The position numbers and the translations under genes were made by a program. A stretch of DNA of 24,852 bases from Deltaproteobacteria bacterium. GTDB taxonomy: Bacteria; Desulfobacterota; WTBG01. This document shows, one piece after another, positions 240 to 17,525 of this stretch. Every line of letters starts with the position of its first letter. The stretch's first letter is position 1. The stretch is taken from contig WTBG01000232.1 of NCBI GenBank assembly GCA_013139225.1, forward strand, positions 1 to 24,852. Reading direction: 5' to 3'. The notes below the pieces were generated by a model, which worked only from the letters and a program-made list of their open reading frames with translations, was not told where the DNA came from and did no database searches.

Positions 240-1181
240 GTGTTAGATAAATTAAAGATATTTTCTGGAAATGCAAATATTCCATTAGCTCGAGAAATCT
301 GTAACTCGCTGGATATTCCCCTTGGCAAAGCTAACGTTAAAAAGTTCAGTGACGGTGAAATTCAGTTGGAAATTGAAGAAAATGTGAGGGGAATGGACGT
401 TTTTATAGTGCAATCAACCTGTACACCAGTCAATGTTTCTTTGATGGAATTGTTGATCATGATGGATGCTATAAAAAGGGCTTCAGCAGAAAGAATTACA
501 GCGGTTATCCCTTACTATGGTTATGCCAGGCAGGATCGGAAGGTTGCCCCCAGAGTACCCATCACCGCTAAATTGGTGGCTGATCTCATAACCACGGCTG
601 GAGCTGATAGAATTCTTACCATTGATCTCCATGCAGGTCAAATACAGGGATTTTTTAATATTCCAGTTGACCACTTGTATGCCGCTCCGGTCATGGTGGA
701 ATTCATAAAGAGTAAATTTGCAGATAATCTTGTAATTGTTTCTCCTGATGCAGGAGGGGTTGAAAGGGCAAGGGCATTTGCCAAAAGGTTAGGTGCTTCT
801 TTAGCTATCATTGATAAGAGAAGGACAAAACCAAATGAATCCACTGTAATGAACATCATTGGAGAAATAAAAGGCAAAACAGCACTTCTTCTTGATGATC
901 TGGTCGACACCGCTGGAACTCTTACTCAAGCAGCCAATGCACTTCGCAATGAGGGAGCAGCTAAAATTGTGGCCTGCTGTACTCACCCAGTCCTCTCAGG
1001 AACAGCAATTGAAAAGATTAGTAAATCAGGTTTACAGCAGATGGTAGTTACAGATACGATTCCCTTGCGGGAAGATGCTAAATCCTGCAAGAAGATAAGC
1101 ATCCTCTCTGTTGCAAGCTTGCTAGGTGAAGCTATAAAAAGGATTCATAACAACGACTCAGTAAGTTCTTTATTTGTCTAA
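240..1181 (+). CDS. prs: Ribose-phosphate pyrophosphokinase
   Basis: [36 protein letters not shown] and DDLVDTAGT motifs; GTG start. Confidence 0.98.
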
Positions 1182-1218
1182 AAACACATCAACATCTTCT
1201 TGTCTTTAAGGAGGTAAA

Positions 1219-1926
1219 ATGCCAGAAAAATCAAAGCTAACTGCAACTGTTCGCAAAGAAACTGGAAAAGAGGTAGCTGGAAGATTACGAAAAAATGGAA
1301 TGCTTCCAGCAGTAGTCTATGGTCATAAAAAAGCTTCGATTCCACTAACCATTGATTTAAAACAACTAAAACATTTGATTAAGGGCGAAAAAAGTGAGCA
1401 CAAGCTCTTTGACTTGTCAATAGAAGGAAATGGTGGACCCACAGAGAAAACAGTAATGATCAAAGAGCTTCAAATTGACCCTGCTAAAAGGCATTATCTC
1501 CATGTTGATTTCTTTGAAGTAGCTATGGATGAAGAGGTAACTATATCAATTCTCATTAAGCTTACCGGTGAAGCCGAAGGAGTCAAGATAGGTGGAGTTC
1601 TCCAGCAAGTTCGGAGAGAACTTGAAATCAGATGCTTACCATCTCATATTCCAGATAGTTTGGAATTTGATGTAAGCCTCCTCAATATAGGAGATTCCGT
1701 TCACTTAAAAGACTTGCAACTACCTTCAGGTGTTAAGGTTCTGGAAGATGTCGATCTTACTATCGCTACCGTACTTTCCCCAACCATTGAGAAAGAAGTA
1801 GAAGAAGAAGTTCCTGAGGAGGCAGAAGAAGAGAAAGCTGCTGCCGAGGAAGGTGAAGAGAAGAAAGTAGATGAGGAAAAGAAAGCGGCAGAAGGGGATA
1901 AAGAAGAAAAGAAAAAAAAGGATTGA
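1219..1926 (+). CDS. rplY: 50S ribosomal protein L25/Ctc (long form, acidic tail)
   Basis: LPAVVYG, LQIDP..HVDF motifs, C-terminal TL5 domain, AGGAGG RBS, prs-rplY-pth synteny. Confidence 0.96.
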   Translation: MPEKSKLTATVRKETGKEVAGRLRKNGMLPAVVYGHKKASIPLTIDLKQLKHLIKGEKSEHKLFDLSIEGNGGPTEKTVMIKELQIDPAKRHYLHVDFFEVAMDEEVTISILIKLTGEAEGVKIGGVLQQVRRELEIRCLPSHIPDSLEFDVSLLNIGDSVHLKDLQLPSGVKVLEDVDLTIATVLSPTIEKEVEEEVPEEAEEEKAAAEEGEEKKVDEEKKAAEGDKEEKKKKD

Positions 1927-1938
1927 TCAGGAGCGCTG

Positions 1939-2508
1939 GTGAAACTGATCGTGGGTTTAGGAAACCCTGGCAAGGAATTTGCTTTAAGCAGACATAATAT
2001 CGGCTTTCTCGTAATTAATAGTTTAGCTAGAGAAAATGGTATAGTTCTCAAGGGTAGGAAGTTTAAAAGCAGGTGGGGAAGGGGAAAAATCTCCAGACGC
2101 ACGGCAATCCTGGCCAAGCCTCATACCTTTATGAATTTAAGTGGAGAAGCCGTAAGCGCTATTACCCATTTTTACAAAATAGCCCCCCAGGATATTATCG
2201 TTGTTCATGATGATAGCGATATTGAGTTTGGATGCTTAAAAATAAAAACAAGTGGCGGGAGTGGGGGGCATCGTGGCATAGATTCTATAATCACCTTGTT
2301 AAAAGATGATACATTTATACGAATCAGAGTGGGGATAGGTAAACCTTCTCCCTACATTGATCACTCAGAATTTGTACTCTCCCCCTTCAATGAGACGGAA
2401 CAAAAAAGCTTAAAACAAGTTATCAATAAAGCACAGGATTGTCTTGAAATGGTTATTACACATGGTCATGAAGCTGCCATGAACAAGTTCCATTGTAAAA
2501 GACAATAA
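1939..2508 (+). CDS. pth: Peptidyl-tRNA hydrolase
   Basis: LIVGLGNPG, RHNIGF, KPHTFMNLSG, HDD and GGHRG motifs; GTG start with AGGAG RBS. Confidence 0.97.
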   Translation: MKLIVGLGNPGKEFALSRHNIGFLVINSLARENGIVLKGRKFKSRWGRGKISRRTAILAKPHTFMNLSGEAVSAITHFYKIAPQDIIVVHDDSDIEFGCLKIKTSGGSGGHRGIDSIITLLKDDTFIRIRVGIGKPSPYIDHSEFVLSPFNETEQKSLKQVINKAQDCLEMVITHGHEAAMNKFHCKRQ

Positions 2509-2511
2509 AAA

Positions 2512-2579
2512 ACCACAGATTTACCCCGTTAGATGTTCACTATATAGTGAGGGGGATACACAGAGAGATTCTCTGCGGT
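2512..2579. repeat. Palindromic intergenic element (ACCACAGA...TCTGCGGT) with internal 14-bp palindrome
   Basis: Terminal inverted repeats 2512-2519/2572-2579 (1 mismatch); TCACTATATAGTGA at 2537-2550. Confidence 0.5.
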
Positions 2580-2618
2580 ACAGTTTGACAACACTAAATC
2601 ACTATAAAGGAGGAAAGG

Positions 2619-4700
2619 ATGGTAAACGAAACTCTAACTTATTATGTCCCACTCTTTGGGATAATCGCCATTTTGTTTGCTTTTGTTAAAGCAAACTGGG
2701 TAAACAAACAAGACACCGGCACAGATAGGATGAAAGAAATTTGTGGTTTTGTGAGAGAAGGTGCTATGGCTTTTTTATACAGAGAATACAAAGTACTCAT
2801 TATCTTTGTCATCTGCGTGGCTATTCTCCTTGCTGTAGCTAATATGAAAGGTACACCTGATGCCTATCGCAGCCCTTTAATTGCCTTATCTTTTGTCTTT
2901 GGTGCTTTTTGTTCAGGCCTTTCTGGTTTTTTTGGTATGCGTGTTGCTACCGCTGCTAATGTCAGGACTACCAATGCAGCTCGAACCAGTTTAAACGATG
3001 CTTTAAAGGTAGCCTTTTCCGGCGGATCTGTCATGGGCATGTGTGTGGTCGGTCTGGGCATTTTGGGCCTGGGCATTTTGCTTGCTCTTTATAGAAATAT
3101 GGGACTGCTGGGGGATGCCTCTTCCGACTTTTCTAACATAATTACCGTTATCAGCGGGTTCTCTTTAGGAGCATCATCAATTGCACTATTTGCCAGAGTA
3201 GGGGGCGGCATTTATACAAAAGCCGCCGATGTAGGAGCTGACTTAGTCGGAAAAGTTGAGGCAGGAATCCCTGAAGACGACCCTCGTAACCCTGCTACTA
3301 TTGCTGATTTAGTGGGGGATAACGTAGGAGATGTAGCCGGAATGGGAGCAGACCTTTTTGAATCTTACGTAGGTTCTATTGTAGGTGCTATGGTTTTAGG
3401 AGCTACAACCATGGGATTTGCAGGATCCGCTTATAATGCTGTAATACTGCCTTTGATTATAGCAGGGGTAGGGATTCTCGTTTCCATAGTGGGAACATTC
3501 TTTGTACGGGTGAAAGAAGGTGGGAGTCCTCAGGCAGCCCTCAATACCGGAACCTTTGGCGCAGCAGCTATAATGCTTGTCGTAACCTATTTCCTCTGTG
3601 TCAAATTTATTCCCAGTGAAATAACTATAGCTGGTTTTGCAGGAATCTCTGCCAGTGATGTCTTTCTTGCTACCATTGTCGGATTAATTGCAGGAGTTTT
3701 AGTCGGCGTAACCGCTGAATATTATACCTCCAAAGACAGGAAACCCGCTCAAGATATAGCCAGAGAATCAAAAACAGGTCCTGCAACAATAATCATTGCA
3801 GGTGTTGCTACCGGCATGCGCTCAACCTGCCCCACAATAATCTGGATTGCCGCAGCTATCCTTCTTTCTCATTATTTTGCTGGGTTGTATGGGATTGCCA
3901 TCGCGGCACTGGGCATGCTTTCAACCACGGGAATTCAGCTTGCAGTAGATGCCTATGGTCCCATCGCTGACAATGCTGGAGGGCTGGCCGAGATGGCAGA
4001 ATTACCTCCGGAAGTAAGGAAAAGAACGGACAACCTGGATGCAGTAGGAAACACCACAGCCGCAATTGGGAAAGGTTTTGCTATTGGTTCAGCAGCATTG
4101 ACTGCCCTTGCCCTATTTGCTGCTTTTAGAATTCAGGCTGGCGTTGAGACACTGGATTTAACAAAACCAAGTATCATGGCCGGTCTTTTTATTGGAGGTA
4201 TGCTTCCTTACCTTTTCTCGGCTATGGCAATGAAAGCAGTTGGCTCAGCAGCAAAAGATATGATCGTGGAGGTAAGAAGACAATTTAAAGAGATTCCTGG
4301 TTTACTTGAAGGTAAAGCCAAGGCCGATTATGCCAAATGTGTGGATATCTCTACAACAGCGGCAATTAAAAAAATGGTTGCTCCAAGTCTAATGGCTATA
4401 ATAGTCCCTGTAGTCTTTGGGTTTATCAGCAAAGAGGCACTGGGTGGTCTTCTAGCCGGCGTTACAGTTTCAGGAGTTCTTCTTGCTGTATTTCAAGCCA
4501 ATGCTGGTGGAGCATGGGATAATGCCAAAAAATGGATAGAAGAAGGCAATCTAGGAGGGAAGGGTTCTGAACCACACAAAGCAGCAGTAATAGGGGATAC
4601 AGTGGGTGACCCCTTTAAAGACACTTCCGGTCCATCTCTTAATATACTTATAAAATTAATGTCTGTTGTGGCTCTGGTTATCGCACCTTTAATTAAGTAA
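2619..4700 (+). CDS. hppA: Membrane-integral pyrophosphatase, K+-dependent type, probably Na+-translocating
   Basis: [45 protein letters not shown] motifs; many TM helices; GADLFESY in TM6. Confidence 0.95.
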
Positions 4701-6702: not shown

Positions 6703-7167
6703 ATGTCAGAAAAAATGATTTGTCAAAACAAGAAGGCGCGGCATGATTTCCACATTATCAATACTTATGAAGCCGGCCTGGTTCTTAAGGGAAGTGAGGT
6801 AAAATCATGTCGATCAGGGAGGGCCAATCTTAAAGATGGTCACGCCCGGATTAAAGATGGAGAAATATATCTTGTCAATACCCATATCAGCCCTTATACC
6901 TATGCCCATCAGCTCAACCATGATCCTTTAAGAGAACGTAAGTTACTCTTTCACAAAAGTGAGATTAAAAAACTTTACGGCAAGATAAGGGAAAAGGGCT
7001 TTACGCTAATCCCTCTAAAAATGTACTTTAAAAATGGGAAGGTGAAGGTTGAGATGGCTGTAGCCAAGGGCAAAAAGACACATGATAAACGTGAGGATAT
7101 AAAGCGAAAAGATTTTGCCCGTGAGGAAGAAAAGGATTTCAAAGGAAAAAAGATAAAAGGAATATAA
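6703..7167 (+). CDS. smpB: SsrA-binding protein
   Basis: [42 protein letters not shown] motifs; adjacent to tmRNA. Confidence 0.98.
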
Positions 7168-7185
7168 GTACCATCAAAAGGATTT

Positions 7186-7262
7186 AAGCACTAAGCACAG
7201 AAAGGAGGAAAGATAAAACATCTGCTCTTTGATATCTAAATATACTCTGTGTCCTCTGTGGT
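7186..7262. repeat. CACAGA.../CTCTGTG 9-nt-periodic intergenic element
   Basis: CTCTGTGTC-CTCTGTGGT tandem at 7245-7262, with a degenerate left arm AAGCACTAAGCACAGA. Confidence 0.45.
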
Positions 7263-7284
7263 TTGGTTTTGACAATAAAAGAAA

Positions 7285-7641
7285 GGGGGCGAAATGGTTT
7301 CGACGGGGATAAGTGAAGCTTAAGGGGCATGCCGAGGTCCTACTTGCTCGTTAAACAGGTGGGATTAAACATAATTGCAAACGATTATGATTACGCCCTT
7401 GCTGCCTAATCAGCAGTAAGCGTTCTTTTAGCTTTTGCCTGCGGGGCTAAAAAGGACGTCGACTCAGCGGGATAGTCTTCACCTCATGCTTATGGAGATG
7501 AAGATGAAACTAAATAAGCTAGCTCTTTAAGAATCCTGCCTGTGGGAGTTTCAAGGAGCGAAACTTAATATACAGGCTAATCATGTAGAACCTTAAGTGG
7601 AGTATTTCCGGACGCGGGTTCGACTCCCGCCGCCTCCACCA
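7285..7641 (+). ncRNA. ssrA: tmRNA (one-piece)
   Basis: 5' GGGGGCG pairs with 3' CGCCTCC-ACCA with a G3:U wobble; TTCGAC in both the 5' region and T-arm; internal tag ORF; follows smpB. Confidence 0.97.
7377..7409 (+). other. tmRNA tag reading frame (A)ANDYDYALAA*
   Basis: ATAATT-GCA resume context; GCA AAC GAT TAT GAT TAC GCC CTT GCT GCC TAA. Confidence 0.92.
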
Positions 7642-7714
7642 TCTTTTTAGCATATTTAGTATAAATTAGAGTATATTTAAGTTTATTTGATTACCAATAG
7701 TTTTGGAGGAACGA

Positions 7715-8608
7715 ATGAAAAAAGCATTCAAAATCATAGGAGTAGTACTACTTATCATTATAGTAGCAGTCTCAATCTTTATATTTACATATCAGCCTAA
7801 AAAGTATTCCGATTTCGGTGTTTTTACAAGTCTTCGTAATCAAGTTCTTATATTACTAAAAGAATACGGAGCAAAAGAAAGATCCATTACTCAAGATTTC
7901 AACGAATTTACCTTAAATTTATCTTTTCCGTATAACAAGGTATTTGGCAGTAATGTCATTGCTGTACCCCTAAAATCCTTCCACAATGATAAAATAGCCG
8001 CTGCAACCATTACCCATTTTGAGATTCCCTCCAACTCTTCTTACTCTCGAGATTTTACCTTAAACATTAGACCCCGGTATGGATTAAGAGCTCCTGTTTT
8101 CCACGTCGATTTTATGAAGCCTGCATTAGGAACACCCGGGCTTTGCATCGTCGATTTCTTCAATGTCGATAAAGACAACATTTCTTTGGAATCGTTCTTT
8201 GGTGATGAACGTACAACCATTGAAAAAGCCTTGTCAATTGTCGAGAAATACCAGCGAAGCATAGAAGAAGGAAGAGGGAAAATCAGCCGATATCTCGATC
8301 CATATAAAAGCACGTATCGATTCGAGCTCAAGGAACCAGAAACAGACGATGAGACCATACGAAAGGCGTATTATCAATCGGTTGAAGAAGCTTTACAATT
8401 AATTTTCCCTTCCTACTTCAAAAGCATGAATGAAATTCAGCTTGATACCAACTTTGTAAAACGACATGAAGAGAAAACGAAAGAGCTGGTTCAATTAATG
8501 TACAAGAATGATTTTGCTATTGACATGGGAAGGAGAATTTTCAAAGAGCATTTTGAAAAATACTGGCTGGATGGCTTTTGGAATGTACAGGTAGACTTAA
8601 AGGATTAA
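7715..8608 (+). CDS. N-terminally anchored protein with ferredoxin-dependent bilin reductase / RCCR-like fold motifs
   Basis: ATG 7715 with GGAGG RBS; hydrophobic N-terminal helix; P-x6-P-x-F-x2-D (RPRYGLRAPVFHVD), then a hydrophobic strand plus Asp (LCIVDF), and C-terminal ND-x7-IF-x4-EKY. Confidence 0.6.
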   Translation: MKKAFKIIGVVLLIIIVAVSIFIFTYQPKKYSDFGVFTSLRNQVLILLKEYGAKERSITQDFNEFTLNLSFPYNKVFGSNVIAVPLKSFHNDKIAAATITHFEIPSNSSYSRDFTLNIRPRYGLRAPVFHVDFMKPALGTPGLCIVDFFNVDKDNISLESFFGDERTTIEKALSIVEKYQRSIEEGRGKISRYLDPYKSTYRFELKEPETDDETIRKAYYQSVEEALQLIFPSYFKSMNEIQLDTNFVKRHEEKTKELVQLMYKNDFAIDMGRRIFKEHFEKYWLDGFWNVQVDLKD

Positions 8609-8656
8609 TACTCAAAGAAGGGTGCATTTTCAAATAATGCTTCTGTATTAATGCTT

Positions 8657-8671
8657 CCCGATCAGAGTCGA
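8657..8671. repeat. REP-like module fragment CCCGATCAGAGTCGA
   Basis: Identical 15-mer at 17876-17890; lies between convergent genes. Confidence 0.5.
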
Positions 8672-8785
8672 GGGTAGGTTTTTCCTGAATGATTGAATTG
8701 GGAATTTCCCTTCCTTCGGTGGAATGGATTAGGGGAATGGGGGAAGTAAGCTCCTTTACTTCTTACCAGATCGTCATACCTGTTT

Positions 8786-10150
8786 TTAATTCCCCTTAAG
8801 GATCTGGACAACAGTTTCTATCACTTCAGATGCCTCAGGGCTTTTAATCACTACTGCATCCGCCCCGGCATTGAGTGCACTCTTTCTGGTTTCAGGTTGT
8901 TTGTCGGCTGTAAACAGGATCAATTTTATTCCCTGGCAGTCTTCATTTTTGCGCACACCCTGGCATATCTCAATCCCTGACATAACAGGAAGCATAAAAT
9001 CAATAACCGCTGCTACAGGTTTCTCTCGAATTATGAGATCCAACCCTTCACGTCCATCAGCCGCAGTCATGGGATGAAAACCCGCTTTTTGAAAAAGACG
9101 GGTATAAAGTCTCAGGATAACAGGGTTATCATCAATGATGACTAATTTTTGAGGTTTCAGTTGATGATTTTCCAATTGGTTCTTTTCATCCTGTCGCTCA
9201 TCAATTACTAAAAGCATATCCGTGCTTTCAAGCTTTGTCTCTAGGTCTGGGAAGATGAAGTCACGTCCGTTCCTGCGAAGACCAACAACCTCTCTCCCCA
9301 TTTTCCCCGATACTTCGCTTATTGTCTCACCCAACACACTCAATTTATCCTGGACCTTGATCCACTGGGGAGCAGCGTTGGTTCCAATAGATGATTTAGA
9401 CAACTCTGTCTGCTTTCCCGTGGCTGCAAGTATATCATCTGCAATCTGTTTTCCTGCTGTGGCAAAAGGTGAAATAACACTGTCCGCTCCTGCTTGTAAA
9501 ATCTTTTTCTCCGAAGAAGCCTCTTCAGCTCTTGCAATAATGTGGAGAGTGGGGTTTAGCTCTCGAGTAGTAAGAACTATGAACAGATTATCTGGATCAG
9601 AATTGAGAAGAGCTAGCAGACCTCTGGCCGACTTTACACCTGCTTCCAGCAGTACATTTTCATGTGTTGCATCTCCTTCAACATAACAATAGCCCTTTCC
9701 CCGAACTTCCTGTAACTGTGTGGGATTAGTCTCAATGATGACAAAATCAGAACCCGCCGTTTTAAGATGCTCCGTCGCGGCCGCACCTACTCTTCCAAAC
9801 CCGCAGATAATGTAGTGAGATTTTAAAAGTGATATATGTTTTTTCATTTTTTTTATCTCCGATCTACCTTCCTGAACCCTTTCAAGGAGTGATTCTACTA
9901 AGGCATGCCCTGCAAATGCAAGGCTTCCAAAACCTATTAAGATAAGAAATATTGTAAACCCACGCCCCACCCCCGACAATGGCTTCACTTCTCCGAAACC
10001 CACTGTTGTGATGGTAATAATTGACATGTAGAGCCCCTCAAACAAGGTATACCCTTCTATCAGCATATATCCTGAGGTGCCGATCGCAATAATAGCCAGG
10101 CATAATATTAGAGCGATCACAATCCTATTATTATAAAACATATTTAACAC
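8786..10150 (-). CDS. 2TM potassium channel with RCK (TrkA-N/TrkA-C) domain and C-terminal receiver domain
   Basis: TTVGFG selectivity filter (9992-10006) between two TM helices; ICGFGRVG Rossmann motif; REC with IIDD, IDFMLP, LFTA and VIKS. Confidence 0.9.
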   Translation of the reverse strand: MLNMFYNNRIVIALILCLAIIAIGTSGYMLIEGYTLFEGLYMSIITITTVGFGEVKPLSGVGRGFTIFLILIGFGSLAFAGHALVESLLERVQEGRSEIKKMKKHISLLKSHYIICGFGRVGAAATEHLKTAGSDFVIIETNPTQLQEVRGKGYCYVEGDATHENVLLEAGVKSARGLLALLNSDPDNLFIVLTTRELNPTLHIIARAEEASSEKKILQAGADSVISPFATAGKQIADDILAATGKQTELSKSSIGTNAAPQWIKVQDKLSVLGETISEVSGKMGREVVGLRRNGRDFIFPDLETKLESTDMLLVIDERQDEKNQLENHQLKPQKLVIIDDNPVILRLYTRLFQKAGFHPMTAADGREGLDLIIREKPVAAVIDFMLPVMSGIEICQGVRKNEDCQGIKLILFTADKQPETRKSALNAGADAVVIKSPEASEVIETVVQILKGN

Positions 10151-10171: not shown

Positions 10172-11149
10172 TTATTTATTGACGTACATAGTCTTCTTAT
10201 TTATTAAACTTGTTTCGTTCATCCCTTCACCAGCAATCCTGTTCCTACCTGCTTCCTTCGCTTCATAGAGACATTTGTCTGCCTTCTCTATTAGCAACTT
10301 GGCTAAAACTTCTTCCCCATCAATGCCATGCCCAAAACCGCTTATGCCAAAGCTGGCAGTAATCTTTATCTCTTCTCCTTCCAGCGGAATCACCATCTCA
10401 GATATAAGACAACGAATCCTTTCCACCACCTTCCATGCTTTATCTAAATCTGTTTCCGGCAGGACAAGGATAAACTCATCACCACCATACCTGGCCAGCC
10501 AGTCAACGCCTTCACGAATAGTACTCATGATGCACCTTACATATTCCTGCAAAACCAGGTCACCTGCTTGATGGCCGTATGTATCGTTGATTTTTTTGAA
10601 ATGATCGACATCGATCATCACAATGTGTAGGGAGTGTTTGTAACGTTTACTTCTCTTGATCTCCTTGGATAGATGTTCCATCAAGTAGCCGCGATTGTAG
10701 CACTTGGTGAGTGGGTCAGTTATAGAAAACTTCTTTATTTCATCGCAGGCATTGGACAAAGATCTTTCTAAATTCAAAAAGCGTTCCCCGGCTTTCATAC
10801 GTGCCACAAGTTCAGCCTGGTTAAACGGTTTGGTAAGATAATCATCAGCCCCGGCATCCAATCCAGCAATAATATCACATTTTTCAGCTCTGGCGGTAAG
10901 CAGCACAACAAAGACATAACCTGGGAATTTCTGTTTCCGTATAGCTCGACATAATTCAAGGCCATCCATCACGGGCATCATCCAATCCGTTATGACTATG
11001 GGATAATAATTCTTTGTTAAGCTCTCCAGTGCCTCTCGACCATTGCTGGTAGATACAACCTTTCTTCCAGCTTTCACCAGGTTCTTTTCCAGCATTCTCC
11101 TGCTAACAGGGTCATCTTCAGCTATTAATATAGGGAATGAATTATCCAT
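10172..11149 (-). CDS. Response regulator diguanylate cyclase (REC-GGDEF)
   Basis: REC: AEDD, TDWMMP, LTA, KP. GGDEF domain: TDPLT, DVDHFKKIND, RYGGDEF, TASFG. Confidence 0.95.
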   Translation of the reverse strand: MDNSFPILIAEDDPVSRRMLEKNLVKAGRKVVSTSNGREALESLTKNYYPIVITDWMMPVMDGLELCRAIRKQKFPGYVFVVLLTARAEKCDIIAGLDAGADDYLTKPFNQAELVARMKAGERFLNLERSLSNACDEIKKFSITDPLTKCYNRGYLMEHLSKEIKRSKRYKHSLHIVMIDVDHFKKINDTYGHQAGDLVLQEYVRCIMSTIREGVDWLARYGGDEFILVLPETDLDKAWKVVERIRCLISEMVIPLEGEEIKITASFGISGFGHGIDGEEVLAKLLIEKADKCLYEAKEAGRNRIAGEGMNETSLINKKTMYVNK

Positions 11150-11469
11150 TAAATTACCCTTATCTCTCCTGCTATTTGGTCACATTGCTCTTTAATGAAT
11201 TCAGCCGCTTTGGCAGCCCCTTCCAATCCATTCTGCCGGGCTTTTTCTTCAACCCCTTTCGCTATCTCAAATATTTTCTCCAATCCAAGATTCGCGGAAG
11301 ATCCCTTTATGGAATGTGATGATGCAACTACTTCTTGGGTATCGCCCGTGTCAATTCCTGTCCTCAGTTTGTCAAGATTCGACTCCGTCGTTTCTAAAAA
11401 GAGCTCAAGCAACTCAAGGTATTCATCCTCTTCCAAACCTAAATTTTCTGCTAATCCTTTAACATCCAT
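11149..11469 (-). CDS. Stand-alone Hpt phosphotransfer protein
   Basis: SHSIKGSSANLG motif; stop overlaps the DGC start (TAATG), suggesting translational coupling. Confidence 0.93.
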   Translation of the reverse strand: MDVKGLAENLGLEEDEYLELLELFLETTESNLDKLRTGIDTGDTQEVVASSHSIKGSSANLGLEKIFEIAKGVEEKARQNGLEGAAKAAEFIKEQCDQIAGEIRVI

Positions 11470-11497: not shown

Positions 11498-13828
11498 TCA
11501 ACTCTTCACCCATTTCTCCACCATATCAAATACGACTTCTCTCTTAATCGGTTTGGGGATATAATCATCCATTCCTGCCTCAAGGCATTTCTCCCTGTCA
11601 CCTTCCATGGTGTTGGCAGTCATAGCGATGATAGGAATCCTAATGATTTCGGATTTCGGATTTCGGATTTCGGATTGTTCTGCATTCGGATCATTCCATA
11701 ATCCGCATTCCAAATTCCGAATTAGTTTTGTAGCCTCCAGCCCATCCATCACCGGCATCTGCATATCCATAAAAACAAAACTGTATCTTCCTGTTTCACT
11801 TTTTCCCATCCCTTCTTTCCTTACTTCTTTCCCCTCGCATCCATTCACAGACTTTTTATACATTTCCACTGCTTCCTGACCATTGTTTGCTATCTCCACC
11901 TGGTAACCAGCCTTAGTCAGCATTTTTGAGGCAAGCTTCTGGTTGACTGGATTGTCCTCAACCAGCAAAATCCGCACCGATTGCTTAATCCCTTCGTTCA
12001 ATGTAAGCTGAGTGGATATCTCCTGTTTCCCCCCTTCTGCTAAACCATGAGTGGTCTTACCGATCTTAATACTACTTCCTCCTACCTTCTTACCCAACAA
12101 CCGTTCCATCATATCAAGGAGTTTTTCTCGGCGAATAGGTTTGAGCAAAAACCCGTCAAATCCTGCTTCCCTGCTCTTTTTAGTACCATCAATTGTAGAA
12201 GAGGAGAAAGCCAACAACGGGAGATCTCTTAGCTTTTCATTCTGACGAAATCTTCTGGCAACCTCATATCCACTCATCACTGGCATTTGTATATCTAGAA
12301 CACCTAAGTCAAAGGAATCTCCCTTGCTCAAAGCAGAAAGTGCAGCATCTTCCACCTTCTCTGCCTCAGATACCAGCTCCACCCGTGCTCCTGCAGAATC
12401 TAACAGGTGACCTAAAATAAACAGGTTGGTCTGATTATCATCTGCAACAAGCACCTTCTTCCCCTCAAGGGAAGCACGACAATCCTTTACGGAAGGTTTC
12501 TTGTCAGATTTTTTCAGCCAGGTGGTGAAATGAAAAATACTGCCAGGACCACCGATTTTGGATTTTGGATTTTGTATTGCGGATAGTGGACTTTGGATTT
12601 TAGATTTGCCATTTTCTACTCCGCAATCTGCTTCCCGCATTCCCCAATCAGCCGGGCTTTCTGCCCATACATCTCCACCCATAGCATTGGATATTCGTTT
12701 GCAGATGGCGAGACCAAGACCTGTACCCCCATACTCACGGGTAGTAGAACCATCGGCCTGTTTAAACATTTCAAAAACACCTTCCAACTTGTCTTTGGGA
12801 ATACCAATGCCGGTATCTCTCACCCTTGCGTGTAACTTGATCCTATCCTCATCTTCTTCTTCAATTTTAAGGGAAAGCTCAATCTCTCCTTGACTTGTAA
12901 ATTTAGTGGCATTGCCTATCAGGTTAACAAGCACCTGGCGGAACTTTGCGGGATCTCCCTCTACATACGAAGGGATATCGTCATCTATGTGGCACAAGAG
13001 CTCTACTGGTTTCCCTTCCACCTTGGATCTGATTAAATCACACACATCGTAGGCCAGAAGTTCAGGATCAAAGTCAATCTCCTCAAGAGTCATCTTTCCA
13101 GCTTCAATCTTGGAAATGTCAAGTATGTCATTGATCAGATAGACAAGTGCCTCTCCACTTCTCTTTACAGTCTGAACGTAATCTATCTGCTCATCATCAA
13201 GCTCGGTTTCTAAAAGCATATCGGTAAAACCGATTACTGCATTCATGGGGGTGCGGATCTCATGGCTCATGTTCGCCAGAAACTCACTCTTGGAACGGGT
13301 GGCATCTTCCGCTTTTTTCTTCGCCTTTTTCAATGCCTCAAACATTTTTTTTCGTTCAGTGATATCCCAACCTACACTTACCATTCCATTTTTATTCTCA
13401 TATTTATCATAAACCATGGCTGTGCTCATCTCCATAGGTACGAGCTTCCCACACTTCTGAAGAAGATAGGTTTCATACTGGCTTCGCTCTCCTTGAGATA
13501 TTCTTGTTTGTATTTCTTCATAATCTGCTAAAAACTCGTCATCTATTACCACCGTCTCTCCCGTAGTGGAGATATAATCTCCGGGTGTCACCTGGGTAAT
13601 ATCGGCTAATCTTTTACCTAATAGCTCTTCGATGGAATATCCCAAAATATCCACTAAGGCAGCGTTCATGCGTATAATGTTACCGTCAATATTTGTTACT
13701 ATTACGCATTCTCTGGATGTCTGCATGATGTTTTCAAGATAATTTTCTATCTCTTCCAATCTTCTTTCCAGTTGAGTGATTTCCCACTCTGCTCTCTCCA
13801 TTGAATGTTCTTCTTTTTCTAACATCAC
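11498..13828 (-). CDS. Cytoplasmic hybrid histidine kinase PAS-HisKA-HATPase-REC-REC with repeat-derived loop inserts
   Basis: H-box [10 protein letters not shown]-box [22 protein letters not shown]; two complete REC domains; no TM segment. Confidence 0.95.
11645..11723. repeat. In-frame 7-nt-periodic inverted-repeat element (insert A)
   Basis: (GATTTCG)x4 at 11645-11672 and opposite-sense heptamers TTCCATA-ATCCGCA-TTCCAAA-TTCCGAA at 11694-11721; encodes ...[11 protein letters not shown]. Confidence 0.85.
11789..11862. repeat. In-frame purine-rich (minus strand) low-complexity insert C in the distal REC domain
   Basis: CTTCTTTCC at 11812 and 11824; encodes [21 protein letters not shown] where REC domains normally have a short loop. 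Boundaries approximate. Confidence 0.5.
12554..12651. repeat. In-frame 7-nt-periodic inverted-repeat element (insert B)
   Basis: 14 consecutive heptamers in one register: GATTTTGx3, TATTGCG, GATAGTG, GACTTTG, GATTTTA, GATTTGC, then opposite-sense units (CAATCTG, CATTCCC, CAATCAG). Confidence 0.85.
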
Positions 13829-13881
13829 TTTATTCCTCTTATTTTTTAAAACTTATACAGTAGAATAAACAATTCACATGT

Positions 13882-14742
13882 TTATTTATTTTTATTAATC
13901 CCGAAGAACTCTTTTGCTTCATCTACTTCAGATCGCAAGTTTCCTATCACCTTTTCCCTGGCCTCATCAGTTAATCCAATTTCTTTACAGACATCTTCTG
14001 TTTTTTCATGGTTTCTATTCCCATCAGACCATCCTATCCCCTCTACTCTACACAATTGATCTGCAACATAGATCGTTTTCACGGCTTTGACGGATTCACC
14101 TAAACTCTGGTTTGAAGGTGCATGATGATTTTTAACACAAGCTCTCAAAACGGGGGGGAACCTGTTTTCTCTGGCAAACCACTCACCTACCTCAGCATGG
14201 GAAGTACCAAATACCTTATTCTCAGATTGATAAATCTCCTCTACACCTCCTTCTACCTCCTCTAAAACCTTCCTATATTCTTCAGGAAAGCTATCAGATA
14301 GGATTATTTTCCCAATATCATGCAATAGACCAGCAGCCAGTAATTCCTCTGGACAAGGATATTCAATCTCCTTCCCAATAGATCTGGCTCCTACACCAAC
14401 CCCCAGAGAGTGCTCCCAAAACTTTTCCATATCCAAAACAGAAACCGTCCCATTTCTTGACATTTTTGCAATAGAAAAACCCATTGCGAGATTTTTTACA
14501 GCATTGAAACCCATAATAACCACGGCATGTTTTAAGCTGGAAATACGCCCGGAAAACCCATAAAAAGGAGAATTTACTTGTTTCAAAATCTGGCTGGCTA
14601 ATGATTGATCACCTTCTATAATTTTACCCACATCTTTTGCTTGCGATTTCGAATCATCAAATACCTCCAGCAATTTTGTGGTGATCTGCGGAAGAGCAGG
14701 TAGATTCTTCGCCTTTTTAACAATCACTTCAAGGTCTGCCAT
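13882..14742 (-). CDS. HDOD domain protein
   Basis: LPALPQI, DQSLASQILKQVNSPFYG, AVVIMG, FWEHS, AGLLHDIGK, HAEVG, HH motifs. Confidence 0.93.
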   Translation of the reverse strand: MADLEVIVKKAKNLPALPQITTKLLEVFDDSKSQAKDVGKIIEGDQSLASQILKQVNSPFYGFSGRISSLKHAVVIMGFNAVKNLAMGFSIAKMSRNGTVSVLDMEKFWEHSLGVGVGARSIGKEIEYPCPEELLAAGLLHDIGKIILSDSFPEEYRKVLEEVEGGVEEIYQSENKVFGTSHAEVGEWFARENRFPPVLRACVKNHHAPSNQSLGESVKAVKTIYVADQLCRVEGIGWSDGNRNHEKTEDVCKEIGLTDEAREKVIGNLRSEVDEAKEFFGINKNK

Positions 14743-14825
14743 CGTTCCCCCCTTTTCTTCTCATGCCAATTACAGTTCTTTGAAAAAAATATCAAAAAAT
14801 ATTTAACCATAATCTTTAGCTTCGC

Positions 14826-17525
14826 TTAAGCAATTGGAGCACCGTCCTCCATCATCTCTTTAACTGACCCTAATATTTGATTCATTTGAAAAGGTTTGTT
14901 AATCACTAAATCTACTCCGCACTTTTTCAACTCGTTATTGTTCAGATCCACTTCCCATCCGGTAACCAAGGCCACTTTTGTCTTTCCATTCATCTTTTTT
15001 ATTTCCTCTGCTACCTGCCAGCCAGACATTCCAGGCATTCCCAGATCGGTAAAAACCAGGTTAAACTTCTTTTCCTGAAAGAGCTTTATGCCTTTTTTAC
15101 CATTTGGCGCCACCTCAACCTTATAACCACCATCCTCTAAAATATCCTTAAGGATGGTTCGTACACCTTCCTCATCCTCAACAACTAAAATGCTGGTTCC
15201 ATTTTGTTCGTTTGCAATCGGTTTCTTTTTTTCTTTAATAACCTTTTCAGGTCTAGGAAATTTGATGGAAAAGGTGGTCCCCTGACCTTCAACACTATCT
15301 ACCGTGATTGTCCCCCGATGACGATTGATGATCCCATAGGAGGCACTCATACCCAACCCTGTTGACTGCACACCTTTGGTGGTAAAAAAAGGATCAAATA
15401 TTTTATCTTTTATATCTTTGGGAATACCGATACCGCTGTCCTTAACCAAAACCACCACATGGCTATTCTCCACGAAGGTCTTTATGGAAATCTGCCCCCC
15501 TTTAGGCATGGCATCAAGGGCATTATTCATAATGTTGATAAACACTTCCCTGAGTTCAGAACCGCTTCCTTCAATGGGAAAAATGAGAGAAAGTTCTTTT
15601 TGGATATTTATTTTTATTCCCTTCGCCCCGGCTTCATCTTTCCATCTCACTTTAGTAAATTCCAAGGTGTGTTCAATAACCTCATTCAGGTCAACACCGG
15701 TAAAGTTTTTATCATCACCCCTTTTTCGGGAGAATTCCTGAATCCTGCGCACAGTATCAACTCCATCGAAGGCAGCCTTTTCGATGATTGCCAAACTTTT
15801 TTTCAGATCATCTATCGATTTTCTTCGTTCCTGCTTCCCTATCAATGTCTCAAAACTCCTTCCTAAAAGCTGTGTCCTGCCAAGGATAACAGCTAATGTA
15901 TTATTAAAATTATGAGCCACTCCTCCTGCCAACTCTCCCAGTGACCTCAATTTTTCAGATTGTAGGAGTTTATCTTCCATCTCCTTCCTGGAGGTGATAT
16001 CACGTACGAAAGAAGTAAAAACATGTTCCCCATTTATTTCTAAACCAAAGACGGAAGTTTCTACAGGGAATTCTCTTCCGTCTTTTCTAAATCCTTTCGT
16101 CTCCACGGTCCTTCCTATTACCTTTGATGCTTTGACTTCTTTAAATTTTTCCATTGCCTCTTTCTGTTTTTCCCTATACTGTGGGGGTACTAACAAAAGT
16201 ACAGATTTCCCCAATATTTCCTCACGATCATAACCATACATTTCTTCGGCTTTCTTATTAAACGTCACTATCACCCCTTCTTCATTCACAGAAATAATCG
16301 CATCAATAGCATTCTCTATTAAACTGTGATATCTCTCTTCTGAATCCTTTATCTCTTCACCTGCTCTCTTTCTATCAGTTATATCTCTGATACTCGCCAT
16401 TGCTCCTGTAGTATTGCCTTCTGCATCCTTTAATATTGAAAGGTTCAATTCGACATGAAATAAATTCCCATCTTTTCTCTTCCACACCTGTTCTACACCT
16501 GTCATTCTCTCCTTTATCTTCAGTTTCTTTATTATTCTAACTGCTTTTTCATGGTCTTTATCATCTAGCGGCATCAATTCCCATATGTTTTTCCCCACTA
16601 TTTCGTCTTTGCTGTATTCAAGCATCTTCTCTACGGCACTGTTAATCTGAACGATGCAGCCAGAAGTGTCAGTTATCACAATTCCATCTACCGAAGTCTC
16701 AAGGATGCGCCGCAATTCCAGTGTGCGATCTTCTAGAAGCTTCTCCACTCTTAAAAGTGACCATTCCCTTCTAATCTTTTCACAAAGATCAATAAGATAT
16801 CCTATTTTAAAAGGCTTACGTACAAACGCATCAGCCCCCATTTTGGTAACCTTCATAGCTAACTCTGGGTTTGCATCACCCGTTGTAACTAAGACTGCCG
16901 CCTGGCTCTGTGGTAATTTAAACGCAGTAAGAAGTTCAGCCCCATCATGTTCGGGTAGATGATAGTCAAGAATGACGACTTCGGGATTAACTTCCTCGAA
17001 CAGGCTATAAGCCTGATTTCCATTGGAAGCCTCGAAAACCGAATAGCCATACTCTCTCAACCCTTCGCAGATTGTTCCCCTCAAACTTTCACTATCTTCC
17101 ACAACCAGTACTCTTAACTCTCTCTGCTCGACCTTTCCCAACAATATATTCTCTATGGTAGACCTCAAAATCTCGGGGTTGTAAGGAACTGAAATAAAAC
17201 CATTAGCACCCAGTTCCCGTGTAATCTCTTCGGCATCGCTCCCGCTGAAAGTAGCTGACATAACCAAAATGGGTATCTTGTTAAAGTCAGAGAATTCTAT
17301 AGATCGTAGCAACCTGCATAATTTCCAGCCATCTATTCCAGGCATGTAGAGATCAGTGATAATCATGTCAACTGATTCTATCTCTCTTAGTTTCCTTAGA
17401 GCCTCCTCCCCTTCCGCACAAGTAATAGCTTCTTTACCACTCTTCTCAAGATGCTTTGCTAAAATCCGAAGCTGCACTGGATCATCGTTGACTATAAGAA
17501 TCCTATTTTTAAGTATCTTTTTCAT
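14826..17525 (-). CDS. Cytoplasmic hybrid histidine kinase REC-REC-PAS-PAS-HisKA-HATPase-REC (atypical H-box)
   Basis: AHNFNN H-box, NIMNNALDAM, DSGIG, FDPFFTTK, GLGMS; two PAS domains ending RDIT; three REC domains. Confidence 0.94.
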   Translation of the reverse strand: MKKILKNRILIVNDDPVQLRILAKHLEKSGKEAITCAEGEEALRKLREIESVDMIITDLYMPGIDGWKLCRLLRSIEFSDFNKIPILVMSATFSGSDAEEITRELGANGFISVPYNPEILRSTIENILLGKVEQRELRVLVVEDSESLRGTICEGLREYGYSVFEASNGNQAYSLFEEVNPEVVILDYHLPEHDGAELLTAFKLPQSQAAVLVTTGDANPELAMKVTKMGADAFVRKPFKIGYLIDLCEKIRREWSLLRVEKLLEDRTLELRRILETSVDGIVITDTSGCIVQINSAVEKMLEYSKDEIVGKNIWELMPLDDKDHEKAVRIIKKLKIKERMTGVEQVWKRKDGNLFHVELNLSILKDAEGNTTGAMASIRDITDRKRAGEEIKDSEERYHSLIENAIDAIISVNEEGVIVTFNKKAEEMYGYDREEILGKSVLLLVPPQYREKQKEAMEKFKEVKASKVIGRTVETKGFRKDGREFPVETSVFGLEINGEHVFTSFVRDITSRKEMEDKLLQSEKLRSLGELAGGVAHNFNNTLAVILGRTQLLGRSFETLIGKQERRKSIDDLKKSLAIIEKAAFDGVDTVRRIQEFSRKRGDDKNFTGVDLNEVIEHTLEFTKVRWKDEAGAKGIKINIQKELSLIFPIEGSGSELREVFINIMNNALDAMPKGGQISIKTFVENSHVVVLVKDSGIGIPKDIKDKIFDPFFTTKGVQSTGLGMSASYGIINRHRGTITVDSVEGQGTTFSIKFPRPEKVIKEKKKPIANEQNGTSILVVEDEEGVRTILKDILEDGGYKVEVAPNGKKGIKLFQEKKFNLVFTDLGMPGMSGWQVAEEIKKMNGKTKVALVTGWEVDLNNNELKKCGVDLVINKPFQMNQILGSVKEMMEDGAPIA

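Follow-up and report, generated by a model that had tools for sequence, protein, structure and literature searches.

The 24,852-nt contig WTBG01000232.1 of a Deltaproteobacteria bacterium from cold-seep sediment (GenBank assembly GCA_013139225.1; Desulfobacterota, WTBG01), here called the window in its full length, raises the question of whether a K+ channel can be controlled directly by a phosphorelay. A gene on its minus strand, the last of an operon (positions 8786..10150), encodes a channel pore, an RCK domain and a receiver (REC) domain in a single polypeptide. It reads as an open reading frame (ORF) of 454 amino acids from a GTG at 10148-10150; database gene calls start at an alternative ATG at residue 4 (10139-10141), giving 451 amino acids. 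All of the features that follow lie on the same strand. A two-transmembrane (2-TM) pore module consisting of TM1, pore helix, selectivity filter and TM2 was recognized by Pfam as Ion_trans_2 (residues 16-85, positions 9896..10105; E 1.3e-14), with the filter T49-V-G-F-G-E54 at 9989..10006 (TVGFG being residues 49-53). The N-lobe of the RCK/KTN domain matched TrkA_N (residues 113-228, positions 9467..9814; E 2.2e-35) and includes the motif G117-F-G-R-V-G122 (9785-9802), E140 at the end of beta-2, and D160. The C-lobe (residues 263-316, positions 9203..9364) is TrkA_C-like and aligns with the C-lobe of MthK, its Pfam match of 24.8 bits falling below the 27-bit cut-off. A linker at about residues 319-333 (9152..9196), variable, lacking consensus residues and modeled with low confidence, leads to the receiver, which matched Response_reg (residues 337-446, positions 8813..9142; E 2.5e-19) and contains the acidic pair D340/D341 (9128-9133), the phospho-Asp D384 (8999-9001), T414 (8909-8911) and K436 (8843-8845). 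The original prediction, made from the sequence alone, had described an MthK-like pore with a TVGFG filter, an RCK domain with GFGRVG and a degenerate TrkA-C, and a C-terminal REC with every catalytic residue kept. The Pfam matches, the motifs and the MthK alignment bear out this description, in which ‘degenerate’ proved an apt word and D384 was placed at exactly the right codon.

Comparison with solved structures divided the protein in the same way. Full-length MthK aligned with residues 13-329 (phmmer E 1.3e-34) and the C-terminal tail aligned with many receiver domains; no single PDB chain spanning both the channel-RCK and the REC parts was present among these matches. The AlphaFold2 (AF2) monomer model, based on 46 homologues, had a mean predicted local distance difference test (pLDDT) score of 73.7 and a predicted template modeling (pTM) score of 0.36. 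Its helices at residues 2-32, 36-48 and 60-108 correspond to TM1, the pore helix and TM2, the last of which forms a long TM2-to-RCK helix. The REC was modeled with pLDDT values of 85-95, the linker (residues 319-330) was disordered with values below 50, and residues 182-233 of the RCK domain were poorly modeled. Foldseek retrieved MthK (6oly, probability 1.0, E 1e-15) and GsuK for the channel-RCK body, and superposed the tail, with its (beta-alpha)5 fold, on solved receivers at a target TM of about 0.9. An assembly chimera was ruled out because the same fused ORF recurs in many independent assemblies and runs, and one contig from a DNA run covers the entire gene. Near-identical DNA was found in 18 DNA runs, under eight study codes, labelled as cold-seep, sediment or seawater metagenomes.

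Searches for the distribution of the architecture revealed a conserved, monophyletic family. All 120 best matches in a 90%-identity database (54-100% identity), Planctomycetota members among them, carry Ion_trans_2, TrkA_N and Response_reg, under no names other than ‘NAD-binding protein’, ‘voltage-gated potassium channel’ or ‘response regulator’. When 1.84 billion 50%-identity representatives were searched exhaustively with phmmer, about 37 clusters covered residues ~5 to 452 of the query at 29-61% identity, and the three core domains were present in 32 of 32 full-length representatives. No NCBIfam model reached its cut-off for the channel-RCK-REC protein; in the ESM Atlas it falls in a cluster of 164 members, mostly Thermodesulfobacteriota, named ‘putative NAD-binding protein’. 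Few sequenced species have the architecture: only three of 301 sampled genomes of the window's phylum contain the fusion, an RCK channel (E < 1e-40) being found in 184. A pattern-limited scan of 185,579 species genomes yielded 14 full-length loci, in Desulfobulbaceae, Desulfobacteraceae, Syntrophobacteraceae, Calditrichota, a metagenome-assembled genome labelled ‘Bacteroidetes’ and the cultured isolate Desulfopila sp. IMCC35006 (locus L039), whose protein is 47% identical to that of the window.

Conservation of the receiver was followed in two sets of sequences. Among 121 close homologues, the catalytic positions are each kept in 118 to 121 members (D384 in 118, K436 in 120), and Glu occupies the phospho-site in three. 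Among the 32 representatives, which reach down to 29% identity, D384 is present in 30, K436 in all, Thr or Ser at position 414 in 31 and D341 in 31, and the D340 position holds 29 Asp and three Glu. The homologues thus have the receiver with its Asp and Lys, the loss of which the original prediction had named as evidence against itself. The two members lacking D384 are altered elsewhere as well: P0128 also has a TVGFRE filter, and P0159 also has Ala at the Thr/Ser position. A pseudo-receiver was ruled out on the basis of these conserved catalytic residues. Alpha-1 of the REC, and the pore helix with the filter, are the two best-conserved stretches in the protein. Hpt or DHp bundles usually dock on the alpha-1 helix of receivers, and the conservation of this helix suggests a conserved protein partner. 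At the filter, the close homologues maintain TVG[FY]G-E, with Gly at position 53 in 109 of 121; in 15 of the 32 distant representatives (within P0127-P0166) the second filter Gly is replaced, giving TVGF[A/R/S/K/Q/V/E]E, and the Glu that follows is invariant.

A maximum-likelihood tree of 32 fusions and 92 plain channels was built from nothing but the channel and RCK columns. All fusions formed one clade (support 0.995) among plain RCK channels. Six short sequences fell inside this clade: three are fragments that are truncated at the N-terminus but retain the REC, and the other three (P0135, P0205 and P0239) have no REC, through loss or truncation. Given this single clade, the REC was acquired once and then kept by selection, with its catalytic residues, over a long divergence.

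If the receiver is phosphorylated, a source of phosphate should be looked for, and in the window a candidate lies next to the gene. Six co-directional genes run from 17525 to 8786 on the minus strand. The first encodes an 899-amino-acid hybrid histidine kinase with the arrangement REC-REC-PAS-PAS-HisKA-HATPase-REC (14826..17525), followed by an HDOD protein of 286 amino acids (13882..14742), a second hybrid histidine kinase of 776 amino acids (PAS-HisKA-HATPase-REC-REC; 11498..13828), a stand-alone Hpt protein of 106 amino acids with the HxxKG motif in the form HSIKG and the phospho-acceptor candidate H52 (11149..11469), a REC-GGDEF response regulator, that is, a diguanylate cyclase (10172..11149), and finally the channel gene; the domains were assigned with Pfam. 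The REC-GGDEF gene overlaps the Hpt gene by one base and the channel gene begins 21 nt downstream of it. A single locus therefore holds a phosphorelay set: hybrid kinases with HisKA, HATPase and REC, an HxxKG Hpt and terminal receiver proteins. A Pfam Hpt search of the whole genome (74% complete) detected only the Hpt of the operon. The order Hpt, REC-GGDEF, channel is found again in relatives of 94% and 76% identity; in another, of 67% identity, the channel gene adjoins a hybrid kinase and has REC and HDOD genes in its neighborhood.

This linkage does not extend to the whole family. When 22 fusion loci were compared with up to 8 kb of flanking sequence, full relay linkage was seen only in the window (WIN), L028 and L001, and partial linkage in L003, L004, L032 and L035. 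A universal operon link was ruled out, most of the distant loci being orphans. Since about half of the fusion loci are orphans, the operon linkage of the channel to relay genes is clade-specific. The claim that the phosphorelay is co-encoded with the channel hence stands for the window's clade, the window itself supplying two hybrid kinases and the sole Hpt detected in its genome, and fails as a statement about the family. Genomes with orphan copies carry 8-12 Hpt domains elsewhere.

A second kind of link to Hpt, and across the family the stronger one, is found within the channel proteins themselves. An Hpt domain lies on the same polypeptide in 14 of the 32 representative clusters (44%), at the C-terminus in 13 and at the N-terminus in one, P0156. 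In this metagenomic protein of 773 amino acids the Hpt (residues 5-97) is followed by a stretch of about 240 amino acids without an assigned domain and then by pore, RCK and REC, which makes it a second, independent fusion position. The fusions are scattered over both subclades of the channel+RCK tree, and HxxKG, with its phospho-His, is intact in 17 of the 19 fused Hpt domains. Their occurrence at either end of the protein and across the two subclades constitutes a Rosetta-stone link, and argues that Hpt and channel REC would exchange phosphate. The fusions partly replace operon linkage.

The RCK domain gives indications about a second input. The Ca2+ site-1 ligands of MthK, D184, E210 and E212, align with L181, R207 and E209, and R207 is invariant in the channel-REC family. 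Gating by Ca2+ as in MthK was ruled out on account of the replacements at D184 and E210; the protein is accordingly not a Ca2+-gated MthK orthologue, though it belongs to the wider RCK-channel family. The Rossmann motif GxGxxG (GFGRVG, residues 117-122) is invariant and the E140 position holds Glu or Asp in 30 of the 32 representatives. GxGxxG together with an acidic beta-2 end is a feature of nucleotide-binding KTN domains such as those of KtrA, TrkA and GsuK. An adenine nucleotide is thus probably a second input to the channel RCK, and, with this nucleotide-binding motif retained, the REC would be one of two inputs and not the sole one.

The channel gene may also have an internal start. MthK fills its octameric ring with soluble RCK made from the internal Met107. 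In the window, a GGAG at 9857-9860 precedes the ATG of M102 (9845-9847) with a 9-nt spacer, a candidate start that occupies 9845..9860 on the minus strand. Each of the 21 fusion genes with available DNA has an ATG at a distance of exactly 15 codons ahead of GxGxxG, and in 15 of them a Shine-Dalgarno (SD)-like core, mostly GGAG with a 9-nt spacer, is present 6-11 nt upstream. The other internal ATGs of the same genes have such a core in 21 of 165 cases (13%; Fisher p 3e-8, ignoring relatedness). In the first eight loci, the residue before a conserved Glu varies (S, T, L, G or R) and its third codon base is G in seven of the eight; the Glu is present in seven, and is always encoded by GAG. This points to conservation of the SD-like stretch at the nucleotide level. 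Plain RCK channels have the Met in 33 of 60 sequences, with an SD-like core in 25 of those 33. Translation from M102 would probably yield a soluble RCK-REC protein of 353 amino acids, and, if this start is used, the ring would contain eight RCK-REC units, of which four would be joined to the pore and the other four soluble.

Taken together, these features make direct phosphorelay control of the channel through its built-in REC a fairly probable mechanism. The gene product would be a tetrameric 2-TM K+ channel of the MthK/RCK type, with a gating ring completed by soluble RCK-REC subunits started at M102 and each RCK bearing a REC on a flexible linker. Signals perceived by cytoplasmic PAS domains would activate the two hybrid kinases, and phosphate would pass from the kinase REC domains to H52 of the Hpt and from there, in parallel, to the REC-GGDEF and to D384 of the channel. 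Once phosphorylated, the REC would repack against the RCK ring or pair with a neighboring REC, shifting the open probability of the pore; a nucleotide at the KTN site would act as the second input. The architecture, the residue conservation, the size and monophyly of the family, the Hpt fusions, the operon and the conserved internal ATG with its SD-like motif were observed directly, whereas phosphotransfer to D384 and its effect on gating, be it opening or closing of the pore and with K+ flowing in either direction, are inferred. Understood in this way, the protein would be an RCK-gated K+ channel with a covalently switched receiver input and, equally, a response regulator with a channel as its effector. 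The chances are roughly even that the system goes further, and is a first case of an ion channel serving as a direct output of two-component signaling, in which the phosphorylated ring REC would convert a cytoplasmic signal into K+ flux and a change in membrane potential as quickly as phosphotransfer proceeds, in parallel to c-di-GMP synthesis, and in which the Hpt-fused members may pass phosphate on, forming a two-way node between electrical or ionic state and phosphorelay.

Several observations weigh against direct phosphorelay control. Within 8 kb of about half of the 22 fusion loci, there is neither a kinase nor an Hpt nor another REC gene. The REC-Hpt order resembles a hybrid-kinase tail, in which the Hpt receives phosphate from the REC and hands it on; the channel REC may thus not be the terminal acceptor. 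The position of the aromatic switch, Y106 of CheY in beta-5, is Val433, invariant in the close clade and V, C or F in distant members; an aromatic switch residue is, for its part, not obligatory for receivers. The monomer AF2 model, with its low pTM and variable linker, shows no confident RCK-REC interface. As for the internal start, its statistic takes no account of relatedness and part of the motif follows from the conserved Glu codon. Finally, with regard to transcription of the operon, libraries labelled as RNA, but of doubtful RNA nature, gave only short contigs at 97% identity.

The main alternative is coupling in the reverse direction: the channel/RCK part would sense K+, membrane state or NAD(H)/ATP, with the REC (or REC-Hpt) as a relay station or phosphate sink. 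The RCK conformation would then set whether the REC accepts, passes on or loses phosphate, feeding ionic or energy status into the c-di-GMP relay. The hybrid-kinase-like combination of REC and Hpt in 14 of 32 clusters fits such a role, as do the placing of the REC C-terminal to the other domains, unlike in most response regulators, the ligand-binding motif retained in the RCK and the many orphan members of the family. In the window, however, the Hpt stands alone and each hybrid kinase has a REC at its own C-terminus, so that the channel REC is most simply a terminal acceptor; moreover, the conserved pore and filter of the window's clade imply selection on conduction. Coupling in this direction therefore seems unlikely, though it retains an appreciable chance, and it is compatible with phosphorelay control of the channel.

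A REC that works without phosphorylation is improbable. Such a domain would serve the structure or assembly of the ring, or let a partner protein dock, its catalytic residues reflecting ancestry or metal binding only. Phosphorylation-independent receivers do exist, and the Val at the aromatic switch and the Glu at the phospho-site of three close homologues would be in keeping with one; the quintet (DD, D, T/S, K) is nonetheless kept down to 29% identity, Hpt domains with a phospho-His have been fused repeatedly, a pattern not readily accounted for unless phosphotransfer takes place, and P0128 and P0159, the members that lost D384, carry other changes too. Phosphorylation by a small-molecule phosphodonor such as acetyl phosphate, from which many receivers autophosphorylate, would make the channel a reader of metabolic state and the window operon a local specialization. 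The orphan loci would suit this idea, to which little probability is given in view of the Hpt fusions in 44% of clusters, the operon conserved in the window's clade, the 8-12 Hpt domains of orphan-bearing genomes and the conserved alpha-1 face, suggestive of a protein partner. That the pore is not K+-selective, being instead a non-selective or non-conducting signaling scaffold, might be supposed from the distant representatives without the second filter glycine (15/32), but is very improbable for the window protein and its clade, which keep TVG[FY]G, GFG filters being known in selective K+ channels.

Returning to direct phosphorelay control of the channel, the parts of the proposed system can be compared with known ones. 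MthK, the Ca2+-gated K+ channel of Methanothermobacter (PDB 1lnq, 6oly), shares the 2-TM pore with a single RCK per subunit, and its M107 has a counterpart here in a Met with an SD-like motif at the same place in the pore-RCK linker. It differs in that the Ca2+ ligands D184 and E210 are Leu and Arg in the window protein, in lacking the GxGxxG present here, and in lacking the receiver of about 120 amino acids added after the RCK C-lobe. GsuK, the multi-ligand K+ channel of Geobacter that binds NAD+ and ADP (PDB 4gx0-4gx5), is similar in its nucleotide-type RCK/KTN (RCK match E 7e-25, plus the structural match), and the KTN domains of KtrA and TrkA share GxGxxG and the acidic beta-2 end. GsuK, however, carries a tandem pair of RCKs without a receiver, KtrA and TrkA are separate transporter subunits, and none of the three is linked to His-Asp phosphotransfer.

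On the signaling side, REC-GGDEF regulators of the PleD/WspR type, CheY and CheB likewise have the complete receiver catalytic set and a post-translational output, and a regulator of the first type shares the operon and Hpt with the channel; here, in contrast, an ion channel serves as the output, and the REC follows it in the polypeptide. The tails of the hybrid kinases ArcB, BvgS and TorS resemble those of the 13 of 32 family clusters that end in REC-Hpt with HxxKG, but the channel proteins have no HisKA or HATPase, the pore and RCK standing in place of the kinase core. In the KdpD/KdpE-KdpFABC system, two-component proteins also control K+ transport. PMC11018627 describes KdpD as also inhibiting the KdpFABC pump post-translationally. 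Control in that system is transcriptional, via KdpE, and exerted through Ser phosphorylation of KdpB, whereas in the window the Asp-phosphorylatable domain lies within the channel polypeptide.

The outputs known for response regulators are DNA or RNA binding, enzymatic activities and interactions with protein partners. No response regulator having a channel pore as its effector was described among the literature searched, and Galperin's archaeal census contained nothing on channels. Full-text literature searches found no paper on a K+ channel-RCK-REC fusion, an absence that is not proof; they agree with the original prediction, which named no characterized fusion of this kind. Each of the two modules is a textbook domain, and databases already list the architecture, under generic names; the searches turned up neither a description of it nor an experiment on it. 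If Asp phosphorylation gates the channel, sensor kinases could act on membrane potential and K+ balance quickly and without transcription, and a covalently switched domain would be a new class of ligand for the RCK gating ring. The Hpt shared with a diguanylate cyclase suggests that electrical or ionic state and c-di-GMP are controlled in concert, which would be relevant to ideas on K+-channel signaling in microbial communities. The system lends itself to testing: it is made of small, well-understood domains, phosphorylation can be mimicked with BeF3-, and one member is found in a cultured isolate.

Some minor features of the window and of related loci were also recorded. Convergent with the channel gene lies an ORF of 301 amino acids (7703-8608, plus strand) with an N-terminal hydrophobic stretch and no Pfam match. 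At locus L027 (genome G160) a frame of 473 amino acids (7959-9380, plus strand), also without a Pfam match, lies antisense to the channel-REC gene over its full length; a GC-rich shadow ORF is the likeliest explanation. In L001, the relative at 76% identity, the REC-GGDEF gene (6876-7871) was called as two ORFs 16 nt apart, a REC of 150 amino acids and a GGDEF of 175, which could reflect either a frameshift or a genuine split. At L026 (G195) a gene for a CHASE2-Ser/Thr protein kinase (12561-15212) is separated by 2.8 kb, including ComEC, from an orphan channel-RCK-REC-Hpt gene; this proximity is probably coincidental. Finally, the gene for the second hybrid kinase of the window contains, in frame, a perfect heptamer array (GATTTCG x4.6) at 11645-11676, related arrays being present at 11692-11723 and 12554-12607. 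In four metagenome runs the word depth over 11645-11677 was 287-3132, compared with about 6 in the flanks, and many different sequences adjoined the array, which indicates a short element dispersed over many contigs or organisms in these sediments.

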